A stretch of DNA of 32,000 nt, taken from contig JAZKAP010000023.1 of the NCBI GenBank assembly GCA_040389085.1, forward strand, positions 7,556-39,555, given 5' to 3'. The stretch's first letter is position 1. Each line of letters opens with the position of its first letter. Of this stretch, positions 1-28,513 are shown piece by piece. Below the pieces are notes generated by a model that made no database searches, was not told the DNA's origin, and saw nothing but the letters and a program-made list of their open reading frames with translations. The DNA comes from Pseudomonadota bacterium. Lineage in GTDB: Bacteria > Pseudomonadota > Gammaproteobacteria > Burkholderiales > Burkholderiaceae_C. The translations under genes and the position numbers were made by a program.

Positions 1-1092
1 AGCGGTTCCGCGGATCTGGTGGGTCAGTTCGTAGCATTGCGCCAAGCCAGTCGCACCCAGTGGATGTCCTTTGGACAGCAACCCACCCGAAGGGTTGACG
101 ACGACTGCTCCGCCATAGGTATTGGCCTCGGACTCGACGAAGGCCTGACCCTCGCCGACTGCGCAGAAACCAAGTGCCTCATAGCTGAGAAGCTCGTTCT
201 GCGCGAAACAATCGTGCAACTCGCACACGTCGATGTCCTGCGGCCCCACGCCTGCAGCCTCGTAGACTTGGCGAACGGCCTCACGCGACATATCGAATCC
301 CACGACGGATATCGCGGACTTGTCGCTGAACGTGCCATTACGGTCAGATACAAGCGACTGCCCCAGAACTTGGACAGCTGAGTTGAGGCCCATCTTCTGG
401 GCGAATTTTTTGCTTACAAAGATCGCGGCCTCGGCGCCACAGGTTGGCGGACAGGCCATTAAACGGGTCATGGAGCCGGGCACAATGGACGAGCTGGCCA
501 ACACTTCTTCCGGCGTCACCTCCCGGCGAAACAGTGCCAGCGGATTCCGGGCGGCGTGCCGGCTCGCCTTGGCCCGGATATTGGCGAAGGTTTTAAGTGA
601 GGTGCCATGTCGCTCCATGTGTTCCCGGCCTGCTGCAGCGAAGTAGCGGATCGCCATGGGCAATTCGGGATGGCCAAACACTTCGTCCATGACTCCATTG
701 AAATGGTCCAGCGGATCAGGCCTGTCATCCCAGTGATTTTTCAATGCACCAGAGGGCATCTGCTCGAAACCGACCGCCAAAGCGCAGTCAGCCGAGCCAT
801 TGGCTACCGCCTTGCGCGCAAGGTACAAGACCGTGGATCCGGAGACACAGTTGTTGTTGACATTGACCACCGGCACCCCGGTCATACCTACTTCATAGAC
901 CGCCCGCTGGCCGCTGGCCGAGTCTCCATAGACGTAGCCGGCGTAGACCTCCTGCACATCGGCGTAGGCCAGACCGGCGTCCTGCAGCGCCTGGCGGATC
1001 GCTTGGGCGGCCATCTCCTGATACGGCAGGTTGTCACCGGGTTTTTTGAATGAGGTCATGCCAACACCGGCAACGACAACTGGCTCTTGCAT
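1..1092 (-). CDS. SCP2/SCPx-type thiolase (lipid-transfer-protein-like acyl-CoA acetyltransferase); 3' end lies beyond the left window edge
   Basis: Absent from the ORF track because it has no in-window stop. Hand reverse-translation from ATG 1092..1090 is open over all 364 codons. It reads MQEPVVVAGVGMTSFKKPGDNLPYQEMAAQAIRQAL, then NVNNNCVSGS (nucleophile Cys motif), VCELHDCFAQNELLSYEALG and NPSGGLLSKGHPLGATGLAQCYELTHQIRGTA, all classic SCP2-thiolase motifs. Confidence 0.88.
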   Translation of the reverse strand, partial: MQEPVVVAGVGMTSFKKPGDNLPYQEMAAQAIRQALQDAGLAYADVQEVYAGYVYGDSASGQRAVYEVGMTGVPVVNVNNNCVSGSTVLYLARKAVANGSADCALAVGFEQMPSGALKNHWDDRPDPLDHFNGVMDEVFGHPELPMAIRYFAAAGREHMERHGTSLKTFANIRAKASRHAARNPLALFRREVTPEEVLASSSIVPGSMTRLMACPPTCGAEAAIFVSKKFAQKMGLNSAVQVLGQSLVSDRNGTFSDKSAISVVGFDMSREAVRQVYEAAGVGPQDIDVCELHDCFAQNELLSYEALGFCAVGEGQAFVESEANTYGGAVVVNPSGGLLSKGHPLGATGLAQCYELTHQIRGTA

Positions 1093-3958: not shown

Positions 3959-4193
3959 ATGGAGTCCCCCATGGAAAACGCAATCGAACACGTACAACAC
4001 AACCCCTGGAACAAGGGTGTGATCGTCGGACAAAAATCACCGTTCAGATTGAAAGAGATTTGGGCTATTCTGGTGCGACTTCAACTTCAACACAGAATTC
4101 GTGAACTCGCCATGTTTGATCTGGGGTTGGACAGCAAACTGCGCGCCTGTGACCTCGTAAAGCTTCGGGTGCGTGACATCTGCCATGGTGATC
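3959..4193 (+). pseudogene. Truncated tyrosine recombinase/phage-integrase family gene (N-terminal ~78 codons only)
   Basis: NPWNKGVIVGQKSPFRLKEIWAILVRLQLQHRIRELAMFDLGLDSKLRACDLVKLRVRDICHGD matches the N-terminal half of small site-specific integrases. Similarity ends near 4190 where IS1380-type transposase sequence starts. The catalytic C-terminal domain is absent. Confidence 0.6.
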
Positions 4194-4610
4194 ACCCGGC
4201 TGGAGTGGGGTGAGCAGGGCAACAACCCGCGGTATGTGGTGACCACCCTGAAGGGCGACGCCCGGGTGCTGTATGACCAGCTCTACTGTCAGCGCGGGGA
4301 GGCAGAGAACCGCATCAAAGAAGCCCAGGTGGGATTGTTCGCCACTCGTACGAGTTGTCACGTCTTGCGCAGCAACCAGTTGCGTGTGCTGCTGGTCGCG
4401 CTCGGCTACGTGCTCATTGAGCGGCTACGCACGCTGGCTCTGCAGGGCACGACCCTGGCTGTTGCGCAGGTCGATACCTTGCGCGTGAAGCTGCTCAAGG
4501 TGGCGGCTGTGGTTACACGTAATACCCGTCGCATTCGTCTTTATCTGGCTTCCAACTGGCCCAGTGCGGATATCTTTGCGCACGCTATGCGCATGTTGCG
4601 CTCTCCCTGA
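4190..4610 (+). pseudogene. IS1380-family DDE transposase, C-terminal ~140 codons only
   Basis: ITRLEWGEQGNNPRYVVTTLKGDARVLYDQLYCQRGEAENRIKEAQVGLFATRTSCHVLRSNQLRVLLVALGYVL. The NPR(F/Y)VVT..L and YC.RGE.ENRIKE......L.A.RTSC signature is characteristic of IS1380-family (DDE group 1) transposase C-termini. The N-terminal ~300 codons are missing. Confidence 0.7.
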
Positions 4611-4808: not shown

Positions 4809-4960
4809 TTAGCCCGTTTGTTGGCGAATACGTAGGCATGGTGCGGCTGTGCTGCACCGAAGACGGCGACCACCCGCGCCAATGCAGAGTCAGTTCCGGC
4901 ACGCATGTCCAGCGGGGCGGTGGCCAGCCAGGCTGTGTCGATGCGGATCAACGCAGCCAC
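4808..4960 (-). pseudogene. tnpB: IS66-family TnpB (orfB), truncated after ~51 codons by the IS1380-family insertion
   Basis: MAALIRIDTAWLATAPLDMRAGTDSALARVVAVFGAAQPHHAYVFANKRAN matches the conserved IS66 TnpB N-terminus. The sequence after N51 (PDISRKFSNCVR) is unrelated. Confidence 0.65.
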
Positions 4961-5370
4961 TCACGCAGCACTTGCGCGCATTGGGCAGCACCGGCGAGTG
5001 GCCAGTGCACGTTCACCGTTGCGCCGCCACGTTGAATCTCGATGTGAATGATCTCGCAGGCAGGACTGGGTGCGTCTGACCCTGGCATGCGCTTGGGTTG
5101 GACTGAGTTTGCACCAACAGCCGCTGAAGCTTGCAGTTGCAGCGGTACGAACGCCGAGGCCGTCCGTTGCAGATCGACCACTATCTGGCGCTGTCGCTCC
5201 TCTCGCATCCATCGATGCACCATATTCGGATTGATTCCATGACTCAGGGCGACACCTGCAAGGGATGCGCCTGGCTGGCGACATTGCTCCAATACCGATG
5301 CCTTGAACTCCACGCTGTACTCGCGTCGCCGAGGGCGCTCTGCTGTCGACACTTTATCCATAGTCTCCAC
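4948..5370 (-). CDS. tnpA: IS66-family accessory protein TnpA (orfA, HTH)
   Basis: RRREYSVEFKASVLEQCRQPGASLAGVALSHGINPNMVHRWMRE is the IS66 orfA helix-turn-helix region. The stop overlaps the tnpB start. Start is GTG 5370 or ATG 5361, with a GAAGGAGA SD upstream. Confidence 0.7.
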   Translation of the reverse strand: METMDKVSTAERPRRREYSVEFKASVLEQCRQPGASLAGVALSHGINPNMVHRWMREERQRQIVVDLQRTASAFVPLQLQASAAVGANSVQPKRMPGSDAPSPACEIIHIEIQRGGATVNVHWPLAGAAQCAQVLREWLR

Positions 5371-17987: not shown

Positions 17988-19628
17988 ATGAATGGTCAAA
18001 TGATGAGCGCCCCCCTGCTCATTTCCTCACTCATCACCCATGCGGCGCGCCATAGCGGCGATGTGCCCATCGTCTCGCGCCGCGTCGAAGGTGACATCCA
18101 CCGCACCACCTATGCGCAATTGCATGACCGTTCGCGCCAGATGGCCCATGCGCTCGGCGGTCTCGGGGTGCAAGCGTCGCAGCGCGTCGCCACGCTGGCC
18201 TGGAACGGCTACCGTCACCTGGAGCTGTATTTCGCCGCCTCCGGCAGCGGTTCGGTGCTGCACACCCTCAACCCGCGCCTGCACCCGGACCAGTTGCTCT
18301 ACATCCTCGACCATGCCGAGGACCAGGTGCTGTTCTTTGACCTGACCTTCCTGCCCCTGGTCGAGGCCGTGGCGGGGCGCTGCAAGACGGTGCGTCACTT
18401 TGTCGCGATGATCGACAAGGACAAGATGCCGGCGAGCAAGCTGCCCAAGCTGCTGTGCTACGAAGACCTGATCTCGGCGCACAAGCCCGACTTTGCATGG
18501 CCCACCTTCGACGAGAACACTGCCTCGTCGCTGTGCTACACCTCGGGCACCACCGGCAACCCCAAGGGCGTGCTCTACAGCCATCGCTCGACGATGCTGC
18601 ACACCTATGCCTCGCTCATGCCGGACGCGATCTCCATCTCATCGCGCGACTGCGTGATGCCGGTGGTGCCGATGTTCCACGCCAATGCCTGGGGCCTGCC
18701 CTACAGTTGCGCGATGGTCGGCGCCAAGCTGGTGCTGCCGGGGTCGGCGCTGGACGGCAAATCGCTGCACGAACTGATCGCCGCCGAACAAGTGTCGTTT
18801 GCGGCCGGCGTGCCCACGATCTGGCTTGGCATGCTCCAGTATGCCGAACAAAACGCGCTCAGCCTCGCCCCCCTGAAGCGCACCATCATCGGTGGCTCGG
18901 CCGTGCCGCCAAGCATGATGCGGGCATTTGAAGATAACCATGGCATCGAAGTCATCCACGCCTGGGGCATGACGGAGATGTCGCCCCTGGGCACGGTCAG
19001 CCGGCTGAAGCAGAAACACCTGTCCATGCCACTGGACGAACAGCATGCGCTGCTCGCCAAGCAAGGCAAGGCCGTGTTCGGCGTGGACATGCGCATCGTC
19101 GATCCGCAGGGGGTCGATGTCCCCTGGGACGGCAAGACGCAAGGCGATCTGCTGGTGCGCGGACTGTGGGTGGTTCAGAGCTACTTTGGCGCTGATGGTG
19201 CCAAACCCCTGGTGAGTGACGCAGCAGGCGTGCCCTGGTTCCCCACCGGCGACGTGGCCATGATCGACGCCGACGGCTACATGCAAATCACTGATCGCAG
19301 CAAGGACGTGATCAAGTCCGGCGGCGAATGGATCGGTTCGATCGATCTGGAAAACGTCGCCATGGCGCACCCGGCGGTGGCGATGGCTGCCGCCATCGCC
19401 GTGCCGCACCCGAAATGGGATGAACGGCCCTTGCTCGTGGTGGTGCGCAAGCCGGGCGCGGAGGTCACCCGCGAAGCGCTGATTGAACACTACAAAGGCA
19501 AGGTCGCCTCCTGGTGGGTGCCTGACGACGTGGTGTTCGTCGAGGCCATCCCCATCGGCGCCACTGGCAAGATGCTGAAGAACCAGTTGCGTGAGCAGTT
19601 CAAGGACCACCGGCTGCCGGGGGTCTAA
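17988..19628 (+). CDS. Medium/long-chain fatty-acid--CoA ligase, AlkK-like
   Basis: ORF 17841..19628 trimmed to ATG 17988 (AAGGAG SD at 17977-17982); 546 aa. Motifs are [23 protein letters not shown]-loop [55 protein letters not shown] and [10 protein letters not shown]. Confidence 0.92.
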
Positions 19629-19632
19629 AAGA

Positions 19633-19665
19633 TTTGCGGTAAACATATTCAATGAATGCCGCAAA
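19633..19665. terminator. Interrupted hairpin between the convergent ligase and LuxR-type genes
   Basis: TTTGCGG (19633-19639) pairs with CCGCAAA (19659-19665), with an inner ATTC/GAAT stem. On the minus strand it is followed by TCTTTTA, so it is most plausibly the terminator of the regulator gene. Confidence 0.35.
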
Positions 19666-19676
19666 AGCAAGCCCCA

Positions 19677-22364
19677 TCAAACTAGCCAGGCCCGAGTGCG
19701 AGCTTCGCGCAAAGCACCCGTGCGATTTTTCACGCCCAGCTTCGCGTAGATGTTGTGAAGATGCCATTTCACCGTGCCCTCGGTCAACACAAGCCGACCC
19801 GCCACTTCGCCATTGGACAGGCCATCTGCCAGCAGGCGAAGGATCTGCAGTTCGCGCTCGGTTGGTCGCTCCTGGTCCGCGGGCGCCGCATCCTGACGTG
19901 CAGATGCAGCGCCCGCGGCAAGCAGCAGCGTTCGCGCGTATAAAAACGCCGGCGTGGGACTCTGCGGCTTGTCAGCCACGCGGCGCAAAAGGCTCTCCAA
20001 CTCGGGGCCTTCGTCAAGGTACAGGCGCACGTAGCCGTTCGATGCCGCGATGCGAAGGCTTTCCATCACCGCGTCGTGCCCACCCTCGGCATCTCCTGTT
20101 CGCACCAACGCCAGTGAGCGCAGCATCAACAACTCGGCCAGCTTGTGCTGCTGGTGGCTGCGTCGCGCCCTGGCGATGCCGGAATCGACCCATTGCAGAG
20201 CGAGATCGGGCCGCCCCTGCGCGAGATCGAGGCGGGCCCAGAGGCGCTCGGCCTTGTCTCTGTGCAGATTGGTCTGCGGCCCTTGCGGCAGCAACCCATT
20301 ATCGTTGGCCATTTGTCGCGCCGCCTCGACGTCGCCGGCGCGCAACAGCAGCAGCGCACGTTCGGCCACCATCGTGAGCTGCAGGCGCACGAAGCCGCGC
20401 GCCAGTCCCACGCGCTCGCCCTCCGCCGCCGCATCGAGCGCACCGGATATGTCGCCCCGCGCCGCCTGCAGACGTGACGCCGCCACGTAGCCCGCGACCA
20501 TCGCATCGACAATGCCCTGGTGCGGCAGCAGTGGCAGTGCCGCTTCCACTTCCACCATCGCGTCAGTGCACTGGTTGCGTTCATACAGCAGCAACGCGCG
20601 GATCGCGCGCAGCATGGCCGCCAGGCCCGCGGCGCCGGGAGCGAAAGCTGGCTCTTCGGCCAGCGCCGAGGCGCTGTCTGCCAGGGCATCACGATGCCGC
20701 CCCGCCTTGAGCAGCGAGGCGGCCGAGATCACCCGCACCCACATGTGGCCGTAAGGTGAAGGAGCCTCCTCGAACTTCACTTGCGCCTCGCGCAAGGACT
20801 GGGCAGCCTCGGCGAAGCGTCCATTGCATTTGTGCGCATAGGCCAGCACCGTTTGTGCGGCTCCATAGTGGAATGGGTCCGGATCGGGTGGCCCTGCCAG
20901 CCACCGGCGCACAAAGACCTCGGCATCGGCCTCGTTATCACGCAGGCCGGCGATCACGCCGCGCTGAAGGACGGTCGTATGCAGGATCAAGCGAACGCCG
21001 GCTGATTGTCCCTTGCCACAAGCCCGCTCAATGCGCGTCAGCCACGCTGCCGCCTCGGCATAGCGGCGCAAAAACACCAGCGCCCACACCGCTTGCAACA
21101 TCAGCGCGCAGTCTGGCTCCACGCCGCGTGATTCCAATTGCGCGAGCAGGTCCAGGAAGGTCTCGTGCCGGCCCTCGCCCTGCACCAGTTGACGCGCGTA
21201 GCCGGTCAGATAAGCCGACGCCAGCCTTGCGTCATCACCTTCCAGGGCCACGCGGATCGCACGGTAGACCTCGCCCCGGGCATGCCACCATTGCGCACAA
21301 CGCGTTCGCAGTATGCGCACAAACACAGGCCTCAGCCCCATGTCGGCCAATCGCGTCAGTGCGCGCTCCGCCACCAGCGCATGCAAGGCGTAGAACGGCT
21401 CGCCAGCCACGCGTCCCCGACGCTGCACGATGCCCAGTTGCTCGCCTTCGGCGATCGCCTCCGCCCCCTCGGGCGCATCGAGCGCGACCAGCAGCGGCAG
21501 CGTGAAGTCGCCAATGGCGGCCATCACGAACAGCGCCTGCCGTCGGGCCGGCGCGAGGCCCTTGAAGAAGCTCTCGTAAACGAAGCTGTCCATTAGCAAG
21601 TTACTGCTGCCCCCGGCGGCCTCCTGTACGCCCTCGCCGCTGGCGAGGGCAAGCTGTACCAATGCCGGCCAACCCTCGGTGATCCCGACGATATGCTCAA
21701 CCTCTTCGTCACCGGCCGACAGGCGGCGCCGCCGCACCAGTTCCCGCACATCCTGCGCGTCGAGCTTCAGCTCGTGCTGTGTCACCCAGCGTACCAGCCC
21801 GCGCGCGGTCAGCACGGCCAGATCGAAATCCATCCCTTCGCGGCCGCAAACGACGAACCTCAAGTAGTCGGGTGCCGCCACCAACAGACGGCTCAGGGTG
21901 TGAGCGCTCTCGCTGCCACGCAACACATGCACATCGTCGAAGAACAGCACCATGGGACGACGACGTTGGCCAAGGGCCTGCAACAACGCCAGCAAGCCGC
22001 TCTCGACCGCCGCCGTCGCGTCGATGGCACCCATCGCGACAGGCTCCGACGGACCTCCGACTGCATTCAACAAAGAGCGCACAAAGAACACCTGGTCGCG
22101 CCAGGAAGCGTCGAGCCCCACCCACACGGGGTCGGCGTCTTTGCAAGCGCGAAACCATCCTCCCATCAATGTCGTCTTGCCATAGCCGGCCGGCGCAACG
22201 ATGGCCACGATCCGATCACGCATGGACAAGGGCGCAATCGCCCGCCGCGCAACCGTGGCCGTCGTCAGGTCAGGGGGGCCCCCCTCGACTAACGCCTGGG
22301 AGGACGACGCAGCGAAATGGGGCCAGCGAAATCTCGCTTTGGGTTGGGTCATGCCTTCAGACAC
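19677..22364 (-). CDS. Large ATP-binding LuxR-family transcriptional regulator (MalT/AlkS-type, STAND ATPase plus C-terminal GerE HTH)
   Basis: 895 aa. Walker A is IVAPAGYGKTTLMGGW and Walker B is MVLFFDDVH, followed by a long helical-repeat middle. The C-terminal segment TERELQILRLLADGLSNGEVAGRLVLTEGTVKWHLHNIYAKLGVKNRTGA is a LuxR/GerE HTH. Start is ambiguous (GTG 22364 or ATG 22352). Confidence 0.88.
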   Translation of the reverse strand: MSEGMTQPKARFRWPHFAASSSQALVEGGPPDLTTATVARRAIAPLSMRDRIVAIVAPAGYGKTTLMGGWFRACKDADPVWVGLDASWRDQVFFVRSLLNAVGGPSEPVAMGAIDATAAVESGLLALLQALGQRRRPMVLFFDDVHVLRGSESAHTLSRLLVAAPDYLRFVVCGREGMDFDLAVLTARGLVRWVTQHELKLDAQDVRELVRRRRLSAGDEEVEHIVGITEGWPALVQLALASGEGVQEAAGGSSNLLMDSFVYESFFKGLAPARRQALFVMAAIGDFTLPLLVALDAPEGAEAIAEGEQLGIVQRRGRVAGEPFYALHALVAERALTRLADMGLRPVFVRILRTRCAQWWHARGEVYRAIRVALEGDDARLASAYLTGYARQLVQGEGRHETFLDLLAQLESRGVEPDCALMLQAVWALVFLRRYAEAAAWLTRIERACGKGQSAGVRLILHTTVLQRGVIAGLRDNEADAEVFVRRWLAGPPDPDPFHYGAAQTVLAYAHKCNGRFAEAAQSLREAQVKFEEAPSPYGHMWVRVISAASLLKAGRHRDALADSASALAEEPAFAPGAAGLAAMLRAIRALLLYERNQCTDAMVEVEAALPLLPHQGIVDAMVAGYVAASRLQAARGDISGALDAAAEGERVGLARGFVRLQLTMVAERALLLLRAGDVEAARQMANDNGLLPQGPQTNLHRDKAERLWARLDLAQGRPDLALQWVDSGIARARRSHQQHKLAELLMLRSLALVRTGDAEGGHDAVMESLRIAASNGYVRLYLDEGPELESLLRRVADKPQSPTPAFLYARTLLLAAGAASARQDAAPADQERPTERELQILRLLADGLSNGEVAGRLVLTEGTVKWHLHNIYAKLGVKNRTGALREARTRAWLV

Positions 22365-22389
22365 TCAGAAGGCGCACGAAGACGCTGTT

Positions 22390-22821
22390 TCACGCTTGAA
22401 GTCCGGCCGCCCGGAATCGCGGCAGCGACACACCGCCACCGACAGGCTCGCAAACCAGCTCGACCACCATGTCGAAGGTGACCGCCGAAGGGTCTGGACC
22501 GACGAAGGCGCTGATCATCCGCGGACCTTCTTCGAGTTCGACCAGCAGCACGGCATAGGGCGTGTCCTGTTTGAAGGCCGGGCCGGGCGCCCGGTGCACC
22601 ACGCTGAACGAATACACCTTGGCGCGACCGCTGGCGGCGCGGTGCTCAAGGCGCTCGCTACCGCACTCACGGCAGATCGCCTGCTGGTAGAGCTGCACAT
22701 GACCGCACGCAGGGCAGTGCTGCAGCAGCAGCTTGCCCTCCCGAATGCCACGCCAATAGGTTTGCGAATCCGCATCCGGTGTCGGCCGCGGCTTGAGGTG
22801 GGCGTCCTTCGGGTTGATCAC
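22390..22821 (-). CDS. DUF35 Zn-ribbon / OB-fold protein (thiolase-associated)
   Basis: 143 aa. Zn-ribbon is CPACGHVQLYQQAICRECGS, followed by an OB-fold-like VYSFSVVHRAPGPAFKQDTPYAVLLVELEEGPRM. The GTG start overlaps the thiolase-like stop (GTGA, 22818-22821). Confidence 0.82.
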   Translation of the reverse strand: MINPKDAHLKPRPTPDADSQTYWRGIREGKLLLQHCPACGHVQLYQQAICRECGSERLEHRAASGRAKVYSFSVVHRAPGPAFKQDTPYAVLLVELEEGPRMISAFVGPDPSAVTFDMVVELVCEPVGGGVSLPRFRAAGLQA

Positions 22822-24020
22822 AGTGTGGCCTCCGTTCCCAGGATGGTGGTGGCGTTGGTCGCAAAGCCCGCGCCCAGGCTGTGCACCAGGCCGAGTTCAG
22901 CGCCCGCGACCTGGCGTTCACCGCAGCTTCCGCGCAGTTGGTTGACGACCTCGTAGAAATGAAACAAGGAACCCGGCATGCCCGAGTGCGCAAACGACAG
23001 CAGGCCGCCATGGGTGTTGCAGGGAATCGCGCCGCCGTAGGTGATCTGCCCGTCCTCGACGAAGCGCCCACCCTCCCCCTTGGGGCAGAAGCCGAGGTCC
23101 TCCAGCATCATGATCACCGTGCCGGTGAAGCAGTCATAGACCCCGGCCAGGTCGATGTCCTTCGGCCCGCAGCCCGCCATGGCGTAGGCCCTGGCACTCG
23201 ACTGCACGGCGCCCGTGGTGGTCAGCGAGGGCATCAGGAAGATGTGCTCGTGCGTGTAGCATTCGCCGCCGCCCAGGATGTAGATCGGCTTGGCAATGCC
23301 CAGCGCCCTGGCGCGCTCGGCCGAGGTGACGATGAAAGCCGCGCCACCATCGGAGATGAGCGAGCAGTCGAGCTTGTGGTAAGGCGTTGTCACCCAGCCG
23401 GAATTCAGCACGTCATCAACACTCAACTGATCGGTCATCTGCGCGCCTGGCGTGCGCCGCGCATGGTCGCGGTGGATCACTGCGACCTTGGCGAACTGCT
23501 CGGAAGTAGTGCCGAATTCTTTCATGTGCCGGTGTGCGGTCATGGCGAAGGTGTTGGCCACGGGAATGCCGAAGGGCATTTCGTATTGCTGGTCCCGGCT
23601 TTCGGTCATGGAGCGCAGGGCCAGGTCGGGCGACAGGCCGGTCAGCAGGCTGTCGCCGCCCACCACCAGCACGGTCTCGGCCAGGCCGCCGGCAATGGCG
23701 GCGGCGGCGATGTTGAACATCGTCGCCGCCGTGGCGCCCGAGACCTGCAGAGTGTTGGAAAACGTGGGCTGTATGCCCAGGTACTCGCTGAAGGCCACGC
23801 TGAAGCGGTGGAACGGCGAGGCAAAGGCGGAGCTTGAGAGCACGCCATCGATCTGGTGCTTGCCGATGCCGGCGTCGGCCAGCGCCTTGCCTGCCGCGTC
23901 GGCGGCCAACGCGAGCGCGCTCTTGCCCGGCACGCGGCCAACTGCGGAAATGCCTGCGCCGATGATCGCGGTTTTACCCCGAAGCGTATGTGTCGAGGGG
24001 GCGGATTTGATGTTTGCCAT
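22818..24020 (-). CDS. SCP2-thiolase-like protein lacking the nucleophile Cys (possible aldolase-type or non-canonical thiolase)
   Basis: 400 aa. The C-terminal segment NTHGGLLSFAHSGMPGSLFHFYEVVNQLRGSCGERQV aligns with NPSGGL.SKGHP.GATG.....E...QLRG of SCP2 thiolases. The region equivalent to NNNC(S/V)(T/S)GS reads TLQVSGATAATMFNIAAAAIAGGLAETVLVVGGDS, so no Cys sits at the acyl-enzyme position. Confidence 0.8.
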   Translation of the reverse strand: MANIKSAPSTHTLRGKTAIIGAGISAVGRVPGKSALALAADAAGKALADAGIGKHQIDGVLSSSAFASPFHRFSVAFSEYLGIQPTFSNTLQVSGATAATMFNIAAAAIAGGLAETVLVVGGDSLLTGLSPDLALRSMTESRDQQYEMPFGIPVANTFAMTAHRHMKEFGTTSEQFAKVAVIHRDHARRTPGAQMTDQLSVDDVLNSGWVTTPYHKLDCSLISDGGAAFIVTSAERARALGIAKPIYILGGGECYTHEHIFLMPSLTTTGAVQSSARAYAMAGCGPKDIDLAGVYDCFTGTVIMMLEDLGFCPKGEGGRFVEDGQITYGGAIPCNTHGGLLSFAHSGMPGSLFHFYEVVNQLRGSCGERQVAGAELGLVHSLGAGFATNATTILGTEATL

Positions 24021-24046
24021 AACAGGGTTCAGGGGTTGGGGTTGGT

Positions 24047-25684
24047 TCAGGCGGCCGCTGAACGCACACGTTGTCGCAGCTGCGCCTTCAAAATTTTCCC
24101 CACCGGGTTGCGCGGGATGATGTCAAGGTACTCGATGTGTTCGGGCAACTTGTAGGCCGCCACGCCGATCTGCTTCAGGTGGCCGACAATATCCTCCAGC
24201 GTCGGCGGCTGCGCCTTGTCCTTGGGCACGACGTAGATACAGGTCTTTTCGCCCATGATCTCGTCGGGCACCGCCACCGCCGCCACCTCCTGCACGCCGG
24301 GATGGGTCAGCACCAGGTTCTCGACCTCGGCGGCGCTGACGTTGTAGCCACCGCGAATGATAATGTCCTTCTTGCGGTCGAAAAACCCGATGTGGTGCGC
24401 GTCGCGCACGATGAAGAAGTCCCCGGTGCGGCAAAAACCGTCAGGCGTGAACGTGCTTTTCGCCAGGTCCGGCCGCTGGTAGTAGCCGGCAAACACGTTG
24501 GGCCCGCGGTAGACCAGCTCGCCCACCTGGCCCGGCTGCGTGCATTCGGCGTCGACCTCGTCGAGCAGCTTCATCTCGACACCCCGTATGCCCGAGGGCC
24601 ACGCAACGCCCGGAAGACCCCACCACGGAAAGTGATCGGCCCGCTTGGCGAAGTCGGGCACGTCCCGCGCGCCGGCAAACACCGCGGTGCCTTCGGTCTG
24701 CCCCCAGGCATGCAGGATTTCGATGTTCCAGCGCCGCTTGAACTCCTCCATGCTCCAGCGCGAGGGCTGCGCCGAACCCGAGGCGATGCAACGCACGCCG
24801 GAAAAGTCGAGCTGGTCGACGTTGGGCAGCTTGAGAATCATGTTCAGCACGGCCGGCACCAGCAGGGTGAAGTGCACCTGGTCGTGCATCAACTGCTTGA
24901 GCAGTAGCGGCATGTTCAGCGGGTGATGCAGGAGCGTCGTGCCACCGATGGCCAGCGAGGCCAGCCAGGTCGCCACGCCGGTCATGTTGACCACCGGCGC
25001 CGTTGCCAGCACCCGGTCGCCTTCGTGCAGCCCGGCGGTCTGCGGGATCAGGTTCATCTGGAAGAGCCAGTTATTGTGCGACATCGGGCAGCCCTTGGAG
25101 AGGGCTTCGGTTCCGGACGACCAGCACAGGCTGAAAATGTCGTTGGCATCGACGACGATGGCGTCGAGCCGGGCGATGTCAGCCGCACCGCGCGCCATCT
25201 CGGCGATGCGCTCGATCGGCAGCGCGACAAAGCCGGTCTTCTCGGCGATGGCCATTTGGTCGGCGCCCTTGAAATCGCGCATCCCGAAGAAAAAGCGCGC
25301 CTCGGTGAGGTTCTTGACGTTCTGGAACTCATTGTCGCGCCATTGAATCGGCATCGGCGAAAGCACGCCCCCGGCACGGCTGACCGCGAGAAACATGGCT
25401 ACCAACTCCCAGACGTTGGGCAGTTGCACGACGACGATCTCGTCCTTGCGCAAGCCCATGTCCAGCAGCCCGGTCGCGATGGCATCGACCGCTGCCGACA
25501 ACTCCCGATAACTCAGGCTCTGTGCCGCTGTGCCGGTGAGATCCGGCCGATCCGCCGGGTCGACCACGGCGGGCCGCTCCGGCGCCTTGGCCGCCGTCTC
25601 GCGCAGCAAATCGAGCAGGGTACGTCGTCCCCAGTGACCGCTTTCGGTGTAGTGCTTCAAAGCCTCTGTGCTGTGCAGAATCAT
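24047..25684 (-). CDS. AMP-dependent synthetase/ligase (aryl/alicyclic-acid-CoA ligase-like) with a divergent P-loop
   Basis: 545 aa; AAGAGGAGA SD. The N-terminus YTESGHWGRRTLLDLLRETAAKAPERPAVVD resembles the DhbE/EntE-like ligase subgroup. The P-loop reads WSSGTEALSKGCPMSH instead of SSGTTGxPKG. Later motifs are TGDFFIVRDAHHIGFFDRKKDIIIRGGYNV and GKILKAQLR. Confidence 0.85.
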   Translation of the reverse strand: MILHSTEALKHYTESGHWGRRTLLDLLRETAAKAPERPAVVDPADRPDLTGTAAQSLSYRELSAAVDAIATGLLDMGLRKDEIVVVQLPNVWELVAMFLAVSRAGGVLSPMPIQWRDNEFQNVKNLTEARFFFGMRDFKGADQMAIAEKTGFVALPIERIAEMARGAADIARLDAIVVDANDIFSLCWSSGTEALSKGCPMSHNNWLFQMNLIPQTAGLHEGDRVLATAPVVNMTGVATWLASLAIGGTTLLHHPLNMPLLLKQLMHDQVHFTLLVPAVLNMILKLPNVDQLDFSGVRCIASGSAQPSRWSMEEFKRRWNIEILHAWGQTEGTAVFAGARDVPDFAKRADHFPWWGLPGVAWPSGIRGVEMKLLDEVDAECTQPGQVGELVYRGPNVFAGYYQRPDLAKSTFTPDGFCRTGDFFIVRDAHHIGFFDRKKDIIIRGGYNVSAAEVENLVLTHPGVQEVAAVAVPDEIMGEKTCIYVVPKDKAQPPTLEDIVGHLKQIGVAAYKLPEHIEYLDIIPRNPVGKILKAQLRQRVRSAAA

Positions 25685-25761
25685 GATCAGTCTCCTCTTT
25701 TAATGTATTGCCGGGGAGAGGGGAAGACGCATCCGCCGGCGCGCAATCCCGGCAAGCGGAA

Positions 25762-26433
25762 TCAGAAACCGTGAAAGCTGGCGAAGGCCTCCACCTCGGC
25801 ACGCTCGGTTATAAAAGCGTTCTCCGGGGCCGACAGATCCTCGTGCCCGAGGGCGATGCCGCAGGCGAGAATTTCATGGTCGCTGATAGGCAGTTGAGCA
25901 CGCGCCACCTTGTGGTACCAGGCAAACGCCGCCTGCGCACAGGTGTGCAGGCCCTGTGCGCGGGCGGCCACCAAAATGTTCTGGATGAACATGCCCAGAT
26001 CCATGAAGCTGCCGGTATTCAGGCGGCGGTCGAGCGTGACGAGCAGCCCGACCGGCGCGTCAAAGAACGTGTAGTTGCGCAACATCTGGTGCTCACGCGC
26101 CGCCACATCATCGCGGGCGATGCCCAGGGTGGCATACAGACCGAAGCCGCAGCGACGCCGGCGCTCCAGATAGGGTTCGACCCAGGTGGTGGGGTAATAA
26201 GCGTACTCGGGCTGGTGGCGATCAGGCTCGTGCGTGGCCGCATCGATGAATGCCTCGCACAGCCGATGCCGGGCCTCGCCCGCCACCGCATACACCTTCC
26301 ACGGCTGCACATTGTTGCCACTCGGGGCCCGCGCCGCCACGCGCAGGATGTGCTGCACGACCGAAGTGGGTACGGACGTGGATAGAAACCGCCTGACCGA
26401 TTTCCGGCTGCGGATCGCTTCATCGACATGCAC
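25762..26433 (-). CDS. Nitroreductase-family flavoprotein
   Basis: EAIRSRKSVRRFLSTSVPTSVVQHILRVAARAPSGNNVQPWKVYAV and the C-terminal ACGIALGHED are typical of the family. I prefer GTG 26433 (VHVDEAIRSRKSVRRF, family-typical N-terminus, 223 aa). An in-frame ATG at 26544 would give 260 aa but overlaps the divergent gene start. Confidence 0.8.
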   Translation of the reverse strand: MHVDEAIRSRKSVRRFLSTSVPTSVVQHILRVAARAPSGNNVQPWKVYAVAGEARHRLCEAFIDAATHEPDRHQPEYAYYPTTWVEPYLERRRRCGFGLYATLGIARDDVAAREHQMLRNYTFFDAPVGLLVTLDRRLNTGSFMDLGMFIQNILVAARAQGLHTCAQAAFAWYHKVARAQLPISDHEILACGIALGHEDLSAPENAFITERAEVEAFASFHGF

Positions 26434-26542
26434 GGATGGACCGCCTTTCTGTGCTTTCTGACTGCGTAGCGTTACGGAGAAGAAACGATGCGCGGAGACT
26501 GGACCGCTGGACTCCAACACGACGTTCGGATAGGATTGCGAC

Positions 26543-28513
26543 ATGAATTCTACCAAACAACCGTTTGACTGGGTGCCCACCCAGGAACTGATTGTGCAAT
26601 CAAACCTCACGGCATTCCTGCACAAAGTCAGCGAGTCCAGCTTCGAGAGCCTGGGCGCTCGTGCCGATGCCGATCCGGCCTGGCTGATGCAAGAGGTGTT
26701 CGAATTTTGCGACATGCGCTTCTACCAACCCTACACGCAGATGCTCGACACCTCGCGCGGCATTGAATGGGGTCGCTGGTGTGTCGGCGGCACCACCAAC
26801 ATCGTGCTGAACTGCCTGGACCGGCACCGCGGCACGCCGGTGTGGGATCAGACCTTCCTGGTGTGGGAAGGTGAAGACCCGAAAAACCGCAAATCATTAA
26901 GCTACGGCGAGTTTGACGCCGAAGTCTGTCGCCTGGCCGCGGCGTTGCAGTCGCTGGGTATTGGCCGAGGCGACCGGGTCGGCCTGTACCTGCCCAACCT
27001 GCCGGAGACCTTCGTCGCGTTTTTTGCCGTACTGAAGATCGGTGCCGTGTTGATGCCCCTGTTTTCGGGCTTCGGGCCGCAACCCATCGTCGCCCGCCTG
27101 AACGACGGCGAGGCCAAGGCGGTACTGACGGTGGACGGCACCTGGCGGCGCGGCACCCCCGGCGTCATGAAGTCGGTGCTTGACGAAGCCCTGCGCGAGG
27201 TACCCAGCGTGCAGCACGTGGTGGTGCTGCGCCACCTGGGTGAAGCGTCCCCATGCCCAATGACACCGGGACGCGACCACGACTGGGCCAGCCTGGTCGC
27301 CGCCCAACCCCATGACCTCCCGACCGCCGAGATGGAGGCCGACGCCCCCGCCGTGCTTCTCTACACCTCGGGCACTACCGGCAAGCCCAAGGGCTGTGTC
27401 TGGACGCACGTCAGCTTCCTCGGCTCGATGGTCACGCGCGACATGCACATCTGCGCTGATTTCAAACCGAATGATCGCTTCTTCTTCATGAGCGACATGG
27501 GCTGGATGGTGGGCGCCATGTGCGCCTGCATTCCCAGCTATTTCGGTGGCAGCCTGCTGGTGGCCGAGGGCACGCCCGACTTTCCCGACACGGGTCGCTT
27601 CTGGCGCCTGGTGCAGGACCACAAAGTCACCTATCTGGGTGTCGCGCCCACGCTGATCCGCAGCCTGATGCGCTACGGCGACGAAGAGGTCGAACGCTAC
27701 GACCTGTCCTCACTGCGCATCACCTGCTCCGGCGGCGAGGCCTGGACCGAGGCGCCCTGGCGCTGGTTCTTCAAGCACGTCTGCAGGGAACGTCTGCCCT
27801 TCCTCAACATTGTCGGCGGCACCGAGGTGGGCGGCTGCAACTTCACCGGCACCCTGCACCATCCCTTGCGGCCGGGCTCGTTCGGCGCGCGCGGGCTTGG
27901 CGCCGGGGTCGATATCGTCAATGATAACGGCCAACCGGTCGGCGCGGGCCAGGTCGGCGAGCTGGTGCTGCGCAACCCCAACATCGGCTTCACCAAGAGC
28001 CTGTGGCAGGACGATGAGCGCTACCTCGACAGCTACTGGCGCACCCTGCCCGGCGTCTGGGTGCATGGCGACTTCGCGATGCGCGACGAGGACGGCCTGT
28101 TCTACATCCTGGGGCGCAGCGACGACACGATCAAGGTCTCGGGCAAGCGCACCGGCCCGTCGGAGATCGAGACCCTGCTCACCGGCACCGGCAAGGTGTC
28201 GGAGGCCGCGGTGATCGGCGTGCCCGACGAGATCAAGGGTTCGGCCATCGTCTGCGTCTGCGTGCCGATGCCCGGCGTGGCGGCGGACGCGGCGCTGCAG
28301 GCCGAACTGTCGCAGGCGGTCGTCCATGGCATGGGCGCCTCCTACCGCCCCAGGCAGGTGCTGCTGGTCAGCGACCTGCCCAAGACGCGCAACATGAAAA
28401 TCATGCGCCGCGTGGTGCGGGCCGTGTACCGGGGCGACAATCCGGGCGACCTGTCTTCGCTGGTCAACCCGGAGGCGGTGGCCGAGTTGCAGGGCAAACT
28501 TGCAAAAGTTTGA
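26543..28513 (+). CDS. Acetate/propionate--CoA ligase-family (ACS-like) acyl-CoA synthetase
   Basis: 656 aa. The ACS-type N-terminal domain reads GIEWGRWCVGGTTNIVLNCLDRH. Other motifs are P-loop YTSGTTGKPKGCVWTH, WMVG, GGTEVGG, HGDFAMRDEDGLFYILGRSDDTIKVSGKRTGPSEIE and LPKTRNMKIMRR. Confidence 0.88.
   Translation: MNSTKQPFDWVPTQELIVQSNLTAFLHKVSESSFESLGARADADPAWLMQEVFEFCDMRFYQPYTQMLDTSRGIEWGRWCVGGTTNIVLNCLDRHRGTPVWDQTFLVWEGEDPKNRKSLSYGEFDAEVCRLAAALQSLGIGRGDRVGLYLPNLPETFVAFFAVLKIGAVLMPLFSGFGPQPIVARLNDGEAKAVLTVDGTWRRGTPGVMKSVLDEALREVPSVQHVVVLRHLGEASPCPMTPGRDHDWASLVAAQPHDLPTAEMEADAPAVLLYTSGTTGKPKGCVWTHVSFLGSMVTRDMHICADFKPNDRFFFMSDMGWMVGAMCACIPSYFGGSLLVAEGTPDFPDTGRFWRLVQDHKVTYLGVAPTLIRSLMRYGDEEVERYDLSSLRITCSGGEAWTEAPWRWFFKHVCRERLPFLNIVGGTEVGGCNFTGTLHHPLRPGSFGARGLGAGVDIVNDNGQPVGAGQVGELVLRNPNIGFTKSLWQDDERYLDSYWRTLPGVWVHGDFAMRDEDGLFYILGRSDDTIKVSGKRTGPSEIETLLTGTGKVSEAAVIGVPDEIKGSAIVCVCVPMPGVAADAALQAELSQAVVHGMGASYRPRQVLLVSDLPKTRNMKIMRRVVRAVYRGDNPGDLSSLVNPEAVAELQGKLAKV

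Follow-up and report, generated by a model that had tools for sequence, protein, structure and literature searches.

A thiolase-fold/DUF35 gene pair in a patchily distributed acyl-CoA module as a candidate retro-aldolase

In a 32,000-nucleotide stretch of contig JAZKAP010000023.1 (assembly GCA_040389085.1, Burkholderiaceae_C), closely spaced genes encode a nitroreductase, an acyl-CoA ligase, an SCP2-thiolase-fold protein and a DUF35 protein. We refer to this whole stretch as the window, and positions are those of the window unless a contig is named. An initial annotation read the four genes as an uncharacterized CoA-dependent module that cleaves or forms carbon-carbon bonds. Our analysis favors the cleavage direction: by analogy with the steroid enzymes Sal and Ltp2, the thiolase-fold and DUF35 proteins probably constitute a heteromeric acyl-CoA retro-aldolase within a larger island for the breakdown of branched acids.

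Gene arrangement

Five tightly packed open reading frames (ORFs) occupy the minus strand, with gaps of 77, 26, -4 and 25 nt. In the direction of transcription they encode a nitroreductase-family flavoprotein (NTR; 25762..26433, 223 amino acids from GTG 26433; Pfam PF00881, E-value 1.4e-29), an AMP-forming acyl-CoA ligase (LIG545; 24047..25684, 545 amino acids; Pfam AMP-binding, 1.4e-65, and AMP-binding_C), the SCP2-thiolase-fold protein that is the predicted retro-aldolase (THL; 22818..24020, 400 amino acids; Pfam Thiolase_C_1, 7.6e-57, and a weak Thiolase_N match), a free-standing DUF35 protein (22390..22821, 143 amino acids; Pfam zf-ChsH2, 1.8e-11, and OB_ChsH2_C, 2.2e-20) and a MalT/AlkS-type LuxR regulator (19677..22364, 895 amino acids; Pfam AAA_16, TPR_MalT and GerE), whose membership in the module is doubtful. 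An ACS-family ligase (ACS656; 26543..28513, plus strand; Pfam ACAS_N, AMP-binding and AMP-binding_C) is divergent from NTR. The control region between them is 109 bp long (26434..26542), as set by a corrected start of NTR. Domains were assigned with Pfam and NCBIfam profiles, and the nearest structures were identified using phmmer against PDB chains and Foldseek on an AlphaFold2 (AF2) model.

The ORF list and the sequence contain the layout given in the initial annotation, i.e., four co-oriented genes with gaps of 77 nt and 26 nt and a GTGA overlap, as well as a regulator 25 nt past the DUF35 gene on the same strand. The motifs that it quoted (TLQVSGATAAT, AHSGMPGS...QLRG and WSSGTEALSKGC, and NNNCVSGS in a paralogue at 1-1092) were likewise all found. 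Direct reading of the bases at the junction of THL and the DUF35 gene (ACA CTG TGA / GTG ATC) gives a 4-nt overlap, GTGA, between stop and start. A scan of 19500-27000 for promoters and terminators returned the same counts as shuffled sequence and did not indicate the limits of an operon.

THL lacks the thiolase nucleophile and has a Sal-like active site

One key residue of THL is that at the position of the acyl-accepting cysteine. THL was aligned by MAFFT with three SCP2-type thiolases from its own genome, all of them paralogues that carry the Cys (motifs NACATSS, NNCVSGS and NACASGS); in the Cys column, THL has Gly95 (in VSGATAA; codon 23736-23738). Pairwise phmmer alignments agree, placing Gly95 opposite the cysteine of 7yvy and opposite the glycine of both Sal (9myr) and Ltp2 (6ok1). 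The glycine is unchanged in 18 of 18 aligned sequences. The alignment therefore bears out the earlier claim that THL has no nucleophilic cysteine. The description of the protein as Cys-less goes too far, however, as Cys297 is kept in a YDCF motif, and the equivalent residue is an essential catalytic acid in the Comamonas testosteroni enzyme CtSal (PMC12329534).

This motif is the HDCF loop of thiolases, which in THL reads Y295-D-C297-F (codons 23136-23138 for Tyr295 and 23130-23132 for Cys297), with Tyr in place of His. Thus, THL has Gly95 and Tyr295 where a true thiolase has its acyl-accepting Cys and its HDCF His. Tyr295 aligns with Tyr302 of Sal and Tyr294 of Ltp2. The histidine of the thiolase GHP motif is retained as His345 (codon 22986-22988). 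Among family members at 39-47% identity, Tyr295 and His345 are invariant and the Cys297 position varies (C/A/S); Cys297 is nearly invariant in close orthologues of THL, and Ala or Ser takes its place in more distant members.

In CtSal, Tyr302 and Cys304 of a YDCY motif act as base and acid, and mutagenesis showed both to be essential; Sal carries Gly at the nucleophile position, and no thiolysis is possible (PMC12329534). Ltp2 uses a different catalytic pair, consisting of Tyr294 (in YDHF) and Tyr344, while the Trypanosoma brucei protein TbSLP carries YDCF and has slow malonyl-CoA decarboxylation as its sole measured activity (PMC12329534). THL has His345 at the position of Tyr344, and so the Ltp2-type catalytic acid is absent. 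By these residues, the active site of THL is of the Sal/SLP type and not of the Ltp2 type, and it is a hybrid in which a Sal-type Tyr/Cys pair is combined with the thiolase His. The initial annotation named Ltp2 as an example. This choice was apt insofar as Sal and Ltp2 are among the closest proteins by sequence and fold, but the active site departs from that of Ltp2.

Database searches place THL near these aldolases. The best PDB matches by phmmer are 4u4e (2e-81), 9myr_A (4e-56) and 6ok1_A (5e-53), ahead of true thiolases, TbSLP, BbsB and PhlC. Foldseek gave the same order, with template-modeling (TM) scores of 0.75-0.77 to 9myr and 6ok1. The AF2 model used for this search came from a shallow, near-identical alignment (pLDDT 64, pTM 0.71) and served for fold ranking only. 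Relatives of THL are named 'acetyl-CoA acetyltransferase' everywhere in the databases. THL scores 371 bits against NCBIfam NF004811, under the cut-off of 421. The closest structure, 4u4e, is a putative thiolase of Sphaerobacter thermophilus with 42% identity to THL. Like THL, it is without the nucleophilic Cys (VGGSS) and keeps the Tyr and the His (THPGM); it differs in reading YDSF for YDCF. It is a structural genomics entry without an assigned function, and does not inform the function of THL. THL thus belongs to a separate, uncharacterized, 4u4e-like clade.

The DUF35 partner

The DUF35 protein consists of a Cys4 zinc ribbon (C36, C39, C50 and C53; 22663-22716) and an OB fold. Its PDB matches (9myr_B, 2e-18; 6ok1_B, 5e-17; 6esq_E, 5e-14) are the DUF35 chains of Sal, of Ltp2 and of archaeal thiolase/HMG-CoA synthase complexes. 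It is the sole DUF35 gene that tblastn found in the genome. The 4-nt overlap and the Pfam match show translational coupling of THL to a DUF35 partner whose zinc ribbon is of the Cys4 type. The profiles, the overlap and the presence of a DUF35 gene directly downstream of THL in 77 of 78 related loci (see below) all mark it as the predicted zinc-ribbon/OB subunit encoded alongside THL. However, the pair is not orthologous to the steroid enzymes: the DUF35 protein is unfused, with no MaoC domain, the neighboring genes are not those of steroid degradation, and identity to Sal and Ltp2 is approximately 32%.

Two acyl-CoA ligases

The best PDB matches of LIG545 are the aryl-acid adenylating enzymes 5wm2 and DhbE (1md9); together with the NCBIfam profiles, they show a resemblance to aryl-acid and medium-chain adenylating enzymes. 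Most core motifs align with 5wm2 and DhbE, i.e., TE in A5, TGD in A7, the hinge Arg of A8 and the Lys (GK) of A10. The A3 motif, or P-loop, deviates, with TE[AS] for T[TS]G. It reads WSSGTEALSKGC (residues 188-199; 25088-25123), on account of which the initial annotation called the ligase atypical. The variant is real, but it is not peculiar to the module: the pattern W[ST]SGTE[AS]x[PSA]KG is shared by all orthologues, by a 69% identical paralogue and by 119 of the 120 homologues that were aligned, the most distant of which are 48% identical. Such uniformity suggests a functional variant. Read in this way, the P-loop appears to be a subfamily signature under selection, and there is no sign of an odd or defective enzyme.

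Homologues with this P-loop come from organisms as varied as Marinobacter, Alcanivorax, Stutzerimonas, Peptococcaceae and Archaeoglobales. Their gene clusters are beta-oxidation-like, with acyl-CoA dehydrogenases (ACADs), crotonases, MaoC proteins and TRAP transporters, and one also has two carboxyltransferases and a biotin carboxylase. In four related loci (L004, L025, L026 and L027), LIG545 stands in tandem with the 69% identical paralogue, whose P-loop is WSSGTESHAKGC. Four Comamonadaceae loci (L010, L015, L017 and L022) have the order NTR-THL-DUF35, with no LIG545 between NTR and THL.

The second ligase, ACS656, does not reach the cut-off of the NCBIfam profiles for acetate-, propionate- or acetoacetate-CoA ligase. 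In an alignment to Salmonella Acs, its Gly397 is at the position of Val386 and its Gly425 at that of Trp414. Glycine at these positions of Acs widens the acyl pocket, as is known from pocket mutants. From this alignment, ACS656 is predicted not to be acetate-specific and should accept acids larger than acetate. In 43 of 56 loci, a relative that is 60% identical or more is encoded no further than 10 kb from THL, which makes ACS656 the steadiest neighbor after the DUF35 gene. It is likely a functional member of the module that the initial annotation overlooked.

The nitroreductase is an optional neighbor

The NTR sequence covers the whole PF00881 profile (positions 1-167 of 167), and its closest PDB entries are 3gr3 (2e-60), 7dp0 (2e-41; 7dp0-2) and NfnB, 2wzv (6e-29). 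With a full-length domain and these solved members, NTR fits the NfnB/3gr3-like group of the nitroreductase superfamily. The gene predicted previously is real, but its start is probably wrong. It had been drawn from ATG 26544, giving 260 amino acids, whereas all of the PDB alignments begin at residue 38 of that protein, and the NTR ORFs of 17 relatives align from residue 37 or 38; this point corresponds to the relative's own residue 1 in 12 cases and to residue 17 in two. We therefore regard GTG 26433 as the likely start. Within the resulting control region (26434-26542), there is no palindrome of at least 6 bp, and no promoter-like site was detected.

NTR lies upstream of THL in 29 of 70 loci, and is thus an optional accessory flavoenzyme of the module. 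A hint as to its chemistry comes from RutE, a malonic semialdehyde reductase of the nitroreductase family, which is a weak match only to NTR in the NCBIfam search. By analogy, RutE indicates that aldehyde reduction is possible in the superfamily, and we treat this as a lead only.

Conservation and distribution

Gene order was compared across 80 related genome loci (L004-L083); the denominators differ from one feature to another, and, since the loci are mutually related, the counts are descriptive and not statistical. The comparison answers the earlier suggestion to examine co-occurrence: gene order recurs across many genomes, with the near-invariant DUF35 adjacency at its core. A ligase of the AMP-forming type is located less than 1 kb upstream of THL on the same strand in 46 of the 70 loci, but an orthologue of LIG545 adjoins THL in only 18 of 70. 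Loci of the Bradyrhizobium type have another ligase at the position of LIG545, and its P-loop is canonical; non-orthologous ligases fill the upstream position there and in Comamonadaceae. NTR is upstream in both groups, at approximately 90% identity in Comamonadaceae and 62% in Bradyrhizobium and Afipia. The MalT regulator is downstream in 6 of 73 loci, and CuMMO genes are present in 3 of 64. The four-gene set as first drawn therefore needs adjusting: its order does recur in many genomes, but it includes the optional NTR and omits ACS656, a steadier partner.

THL is 80-90% identical across Comamonadaceae, Noviherbaspirillum, Bradyrhizobium, Afipia, Rhodopseudomonas, Acidocella, Xanthobacteraceae and some metagenome-assembled genomes (MAGs) of other phyla. 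Between Alpha- and Betaproteobacteria its identity is approximately 85%, while the DUF35 protein, ACS656 and NTR are 62-68% identical in the same loci. THL evolves much more slowly than its partner genes. Despite this conservation, sampling of 300 genomes from its own family turned up a THL orthologue in only 7 (approximately 2-3%), and sampling of 250 from the order in 1. High identity combined with patchy occurrence points to an accessory, probably horizontally moving module. A plasmid collection yielded no THL orthologue above 60% identity, and family members in it are at 42-47% only. These plasmid homologues adjoin DUF35 genes, MaoC and crotonase hydratases, ACADs, and CoA-transferases or ACS-like ligases.

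A wider acyl-CoA and carboxylase island

To the right of the window, the same contig carries a 17-gene minus-strand array (C23:39000-57655; locus L089). It comprises six ACAD genes (a split alpha/beta pair and four others), a PrpD/MmgE-family protein, a beta-carbonic anhydrase, two crotonases, an MBL-fold hydrolase, a biotin carboxylase, a carboxyltransferase, a family III CoA-transferase, an SDR protein and a MaoC hydratase. The carboxylase genes lie 7-14 kb past the right end of the window, and they are orthologues of the carboxylase genes that neighbor THL in Bradyrhizobium, with 73% identity for the carboxyltransferase and 61% for the biotin carboxylase. In Bradyrhizobium-type loci, the module itself is found among ACADs, crotonases, two carboxyltransferases and a biotin carboxylase. 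Overall, 28 of 83 loci have a carboxyltransferase gene together with a biotin carboxylase gene no more than 10 kb from THL. In Hydrogenophaga loci, the genes that directly abut ACS656 are orthologues (88-97% identical) of those in the first part of the array. Given this adjacency, the LysR/CDGSH/LigB/luciferase-domain operon that separates the two in the present genome looks as if it were inserted between two parts of one island.

We conclude that the module is probably the lyase and ligase part of a larger, patchy and likely horizontally moving acyl-CoA catabolic island. Its gene content resembles that of the Liu/Atu routes for beta-methyl-branched acids, minus an HMG-CoA lyase gene. No gene resembling HMG-CoA lyase (HMGL) is found within 10 kb of THL in any of the 83 loci, nor in the C23 array. 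Elsewhere in the genome, on contig C12, an HMGL-like gene does occur as part of a canonical liu-type cluster. The idea that THL is the sole HMG-CoA lyase of the genome was rejected for this reason.

Comparison with characterized systems

CtSal-CtShy (9myr) is the closest characterized counterpart of the THL/DUF35 pair, as the second-best Foldseek match. The two share the SCP2-thiolase fold, Gly at the nucleophile position, a Tyr-Asp-Cys motif (YDCY in Sal, YDCF in THL) and a DUF35 partner. They differ in that the DUF35 part of Sal has a Cys3His ribbon and is fused to the C-terminal end of a MaoC hydratase, while that of the module is free-standing and Cys4. Gln347 and Gln352 of Sal correspond to Leu340 and His345 of THL. 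Sal is encoded in a steroid gene cluster and the module lies among ligases, a nitroreductase and a carboxylase island, and the substrate of THL-DUF35 certainly differs from Sal's bile-acid side chain.

TcLtp2-ChsH2 (6ok1), an aldolase of the C3 side chain of steroids, similarly shares the fold, the nucleophile-position Gly, the Tyr of YDxF and a Cys4 DUF35 protein, but reads YDHF and has the second catalytic tyrosine that THL lacks. TbSLP (5ab4-5ab7) matches THL in its YDCF motif and in the loss of the nucleophilic Cys (phmmer 1.6e-29); in contrast to THL, it is eukaryotic, no DUF35 partner has been described for it, and identity is approximately 26%. HMG-CoA lyase (LiuE) of the Liu/Atu routes would be analogous in that it splits a 3-hydroxy-3-substituted acyl-CoA by a retro-aldol-type reaction, once a biotin carboxylase and a crotonase have acted. 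It is, however, a metal-dependent TIM barrel with a fold unrelated to that of THL.

The ibuprofen genes of Sphingomonas Ibu-2 and Rhizorhabdus wittichii MPO218 (ipfF, ipfD and ipfE) follow a similar operon logic, in which a ligase accompanies a thiolase-type enzyme that takes off the acyl-CoA side chain. In Ibu-2, the ipfD product is reportedly a thiolase-like protein of the SCPx type, and that of ipfE belongs to DUF35. The ipfF gene encodes a CoA ligase that activates an acid, and the product of ipfDE releases propionyl-CoA in the pathway (PMC9195938). A Rieske dioxygenase makes the beta-hydroxyl in ibuprofen degradation, whereas the sole redox enzyme of our operon is a nitroreductase. A full-text search of the literature found no paper that combines DUF35, nitroreductase and thiolase. 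The kind of enzyme that we propose is already known from Ltp2 and Sal, with ipfDE as an inferred analogue.

Proposed function

The THL residues, the DUF35 partner, the nearest characterized homologues and the company of ligases, hydratases and dehydrogenases together point to a retro-aldol lyase acting on a 3-hydroxyacyl-CoA. Of the functions considered initially, a CoA-dependent C-C cleavage module without a characterized member is thus the best reading of the residues, the partner, the homologues and the recurrent gene order, and it is from these that we infer activity, substrate and complex formation. The observations indicate a 3-hydroxyacyl-CoA that is barred from the normal dehydrogenase and thiolase steps. 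Retro-aldol cleavage would split it into acetyl-CoA (or a short acyl-CoA) and an aldehyde, a ketone or a 3-oxoacid. By homology to CtSal, Tyr295 would draw the proton from the beta-hydroxyl group, and Cys297 of YDCF would protonate the acetyl-CoA enolate, with His345 as an alternative donor. Thiolysis would be impossible because Gly95 replaces the acyl-accepting Cys. The DUF35 protein would be a structural zinc-ribbon/OB subunit and give the substrate cleft its shape. The two ligases, LIG545 and ACS656 with its large pocket, may form CoA thioesters of the substrate acid, of the released oxo-acid or of both, and NTR might reduce a carbonyl, nitro or quinone group of the substrate or product.

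A more specific version of this proposal places the enzyme in a pathway. The company of MCC/GCC-type carboxylase genes, together with the lack of an HMG-CoA lyase gene nearby, suggests that THL-DUF35 supplies the lyase step for a beta-substituted acid, acting on a 3-hydroxy-3-substituted acyl-CoA in a Liu/Atu-like route. In that case, ACS656 might activate the released oxo-acid. We offer this assignment tentatively, and consider it possible rather than probable.

It is important to emphasize that several observations weigh against the retro-aldolase proposal or the pathway built on it. The clade of THL is uncharacterized, its closest structure (4u4e) reads YDSF, so that the Cys is not universal, and we found no published function for 4u4e in the literature. 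His345 is kept where Sal has Gln and Ltp2 has Tyr, and the chemistry may differ accordingly. The AF2 model of THL is only moderately confident (pLDDT 64). The operon itself is without a hydratase or dehydrogenase gene. Phylogenetic dependence among the loci and apparent horizontal transfer both inflate the synteny counts. The link to the island is one of proximity, over 7-17 kb, and is broken by the LysR-regulated operon. Finally, in view of the HMGL-like gene on contig C12, the finding that no such gene lies within 10 kb of THL does not prove that a lyase is missing.

DUF35-partnered thiolase-fold aldolases have been characterized only for steroid side chains (Ltp2 and Sal) and inferred for ibuprofen. 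The present case is distinctive in its uncharacterized clade, hybrid active site, two unusual ligases, optional nitroreductase and carboxylase island, and in joining high conservation with a patchy distribution. If the retro-aldolase assignment is confirmed, hundreds of database annotations will need correcting, and the known substrate range of these aldolases will extend beyond steroids. Confirmation might also reveal which enzyme supplies the lyase that a carboxylase pathway of the Liu/Atu type seems to lack.

Alternative explanations

The initial annotation also suggested that the module may belong to a hydrocarbon regulon, i.e., that it processes an alkane-derived metabolite under an AlkS/MalT-type regulator together with CuMMO. 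This idea is compatible with the retro-aldolase assignment, and several observations speak for it: the regulator begins 25 nt past the DUF35 gene on the same strand, the same junction recurs in six Polaromonas/Rhodoferax loci, three of which continue with CuMMO and alkHJK-like genes and one with a hydroxylase of AlkB/XylM type, and relatives of LIG545 are found in Marinobacter and Alcanivorax. However, 67 of 73 loci have no such regulator downstream and 61 of 64 have no CuMMO, including Hydrogenophaga, Acidovorax and Noviherbaspirillum loci whose modules are 97-98% identical. Transposase remnants, in the window and in locus L023, also suggest that the genes were assembled by rearrangement. The control regions of NTR/ACS656 and of xmoC and the aldehyde dehydrogenase gene have one 8-mer in common, with approximately 1 expected by chance, and share no operator-like motif. 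With neither conserved linkage to the regulator or a hydroxylase nor a common operator, membership in an alkane regulon is doubtful; the link is not supported, and the picture of alkane oxidation in this host is unchanged.

A separate observation concerns the regulator. In a Polaromonas MAG (L008), the genes that follow NTR-LIG545-THL-DUF35-MalT (L008:8425-10793) encode the AlkB/XylM-type hydroxylase, a member of the FA_desaturase family and not a CuMMO, accompanied by a Fer2-FAD-NAD reductase and a MetA-pathway outer-membrane protein. The hydroxylase that goes with the regulator differs between loci.

It is also conceivable, but unlikely, that THL is a thiolase-fold acyl-CoA decarboxylase, after the example of TbSLP, or a non-catalytic scaffold subunit. 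THL and TbSLP have YDCF in common, and slow malonyl-CoA decarboxylation is the one activity measured for TbSLP (PMC12329534). THL keeps the thiolase His345, carboxylase genes are often nearby, and its slow evolution (between classes it is 85% identical, whereas its partners are 62-68% identical) would fit a protein bound in a complex. Against a decarboxylase, the authors of the Sal study hold that TbSLP is probably an aldolase, and CtSal is without decarboxylase activity (PMC12329534). The nearest characterized homologues of THL are aldolases as well, and the invariance of the catalytic Tyr across the family speaks against a dead scaffold.

Aldol reactions are chemically reversible, which permits the opposite direction, namely that THL-DUF35 forms C-C bonds by joining acetyl-CoA to an aldehyde or ketone (acetone or acetaldehyde from short alkanes) and feeds the hydratases and the carboxylase. 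Genes for CuMMO and for alcohol and aldehyde dehydrogenases lie beside the module in the host genome, and an MCC-type carboxylase, crotonases and a carbonic anhydrase belong to the same island. In Desulfotomaculum arcticum, a DUF35 protein encoded beside an acetyl-CoA acetyltransferase was detected only on acetone or isopropanol, and its gene also neighbors a crotonase and an HMGL-like gene (PMC8084838). The D. arcticum case hints at a possible role of thiolase/DUF35 pairs in the metabolism of ketones. However, most genomes that bear the module are without a CuMMO neighborhood, and the presence of two ligases suggests that the substrates enter as free acids. Thermodynamics is a further obstacle, as the aldol addition of acetyl-CoA to a ketone is unfavorable and needs a driving step. 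We therefore give synthesis only a small chance.

A related and still more speculative idea is that THL-DUF35 is a thiolase-fold substitute for enzymes of the HMG-CoA lyase type, converting acetyl-CoA and a methyl ketone or 3-oxoacid into a 3-hydroxy-3-substituted acyl-CoA and back. It would thereby join ketones that the neighboring CuMMO makes by subterminal oxidation of short alkanes (acetone, butanone), or beta-methyl-branched acids, to the carboxylase/crotonase/carbonic anhydrase island, with NTR and ACS656 handling the carbonyl or oxo-acid product. We would wager little on this idea; if it were true, it would describe a route of ketone or branched-chain assimilation that has been without assigned genes so far.

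The least credible alternative is that THL is an ordinary 3-ketoacyl-CoA thiolase: the database names, the SCP2-thiolase fold and the retained His and HDCF-loop Cys agree with it, but Gly95 at the acyl-accepting position in every orthologue examined, together with Tyr295 for the HDCF His, already contradicts it at the sequence level, and CtSal, with the same Gly, is incapable of thiolysis (PMC12329534).

Additional observations

A seven-gene cluster of Alcaligenes faecalis that includes an oxidoreductase, a ligase, a thiolase and a DUF35 protein is up-regulated during heterotrophic nitrification (PMC11160463). We considered this cluster as a possible instance of the same module, but dropped it; one of its genes, AFN_v2_0078, encodes the beta subunit of a p-cumate dioxygenase, and the cluster is built differently, in a way that reads as ipf-like.

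The transposase remnants in the window consist of the C-terminal part of a DDE_Tnp_1_4 protein (4173-4610, plus strand) and an HTH_Tnp_1 ORF (4948-5370, minus strand), and they imply past rearrangement in the region. In locus L023, an IS1595 transposase is the next gene after the regulator.

The Cys-bearing thiolase paralogue at 1-1092 (minus strand), viewed together with the adjoining bases of contig C23 ahead of the window, loses the conserved C-terminal pattern after ...QIRGTAEAR, and its stop-to-stop frame of 684 amino acids runs into SDR-like sequence. This oddity may reflect a frameshift, a pseudogene or an assembly error.

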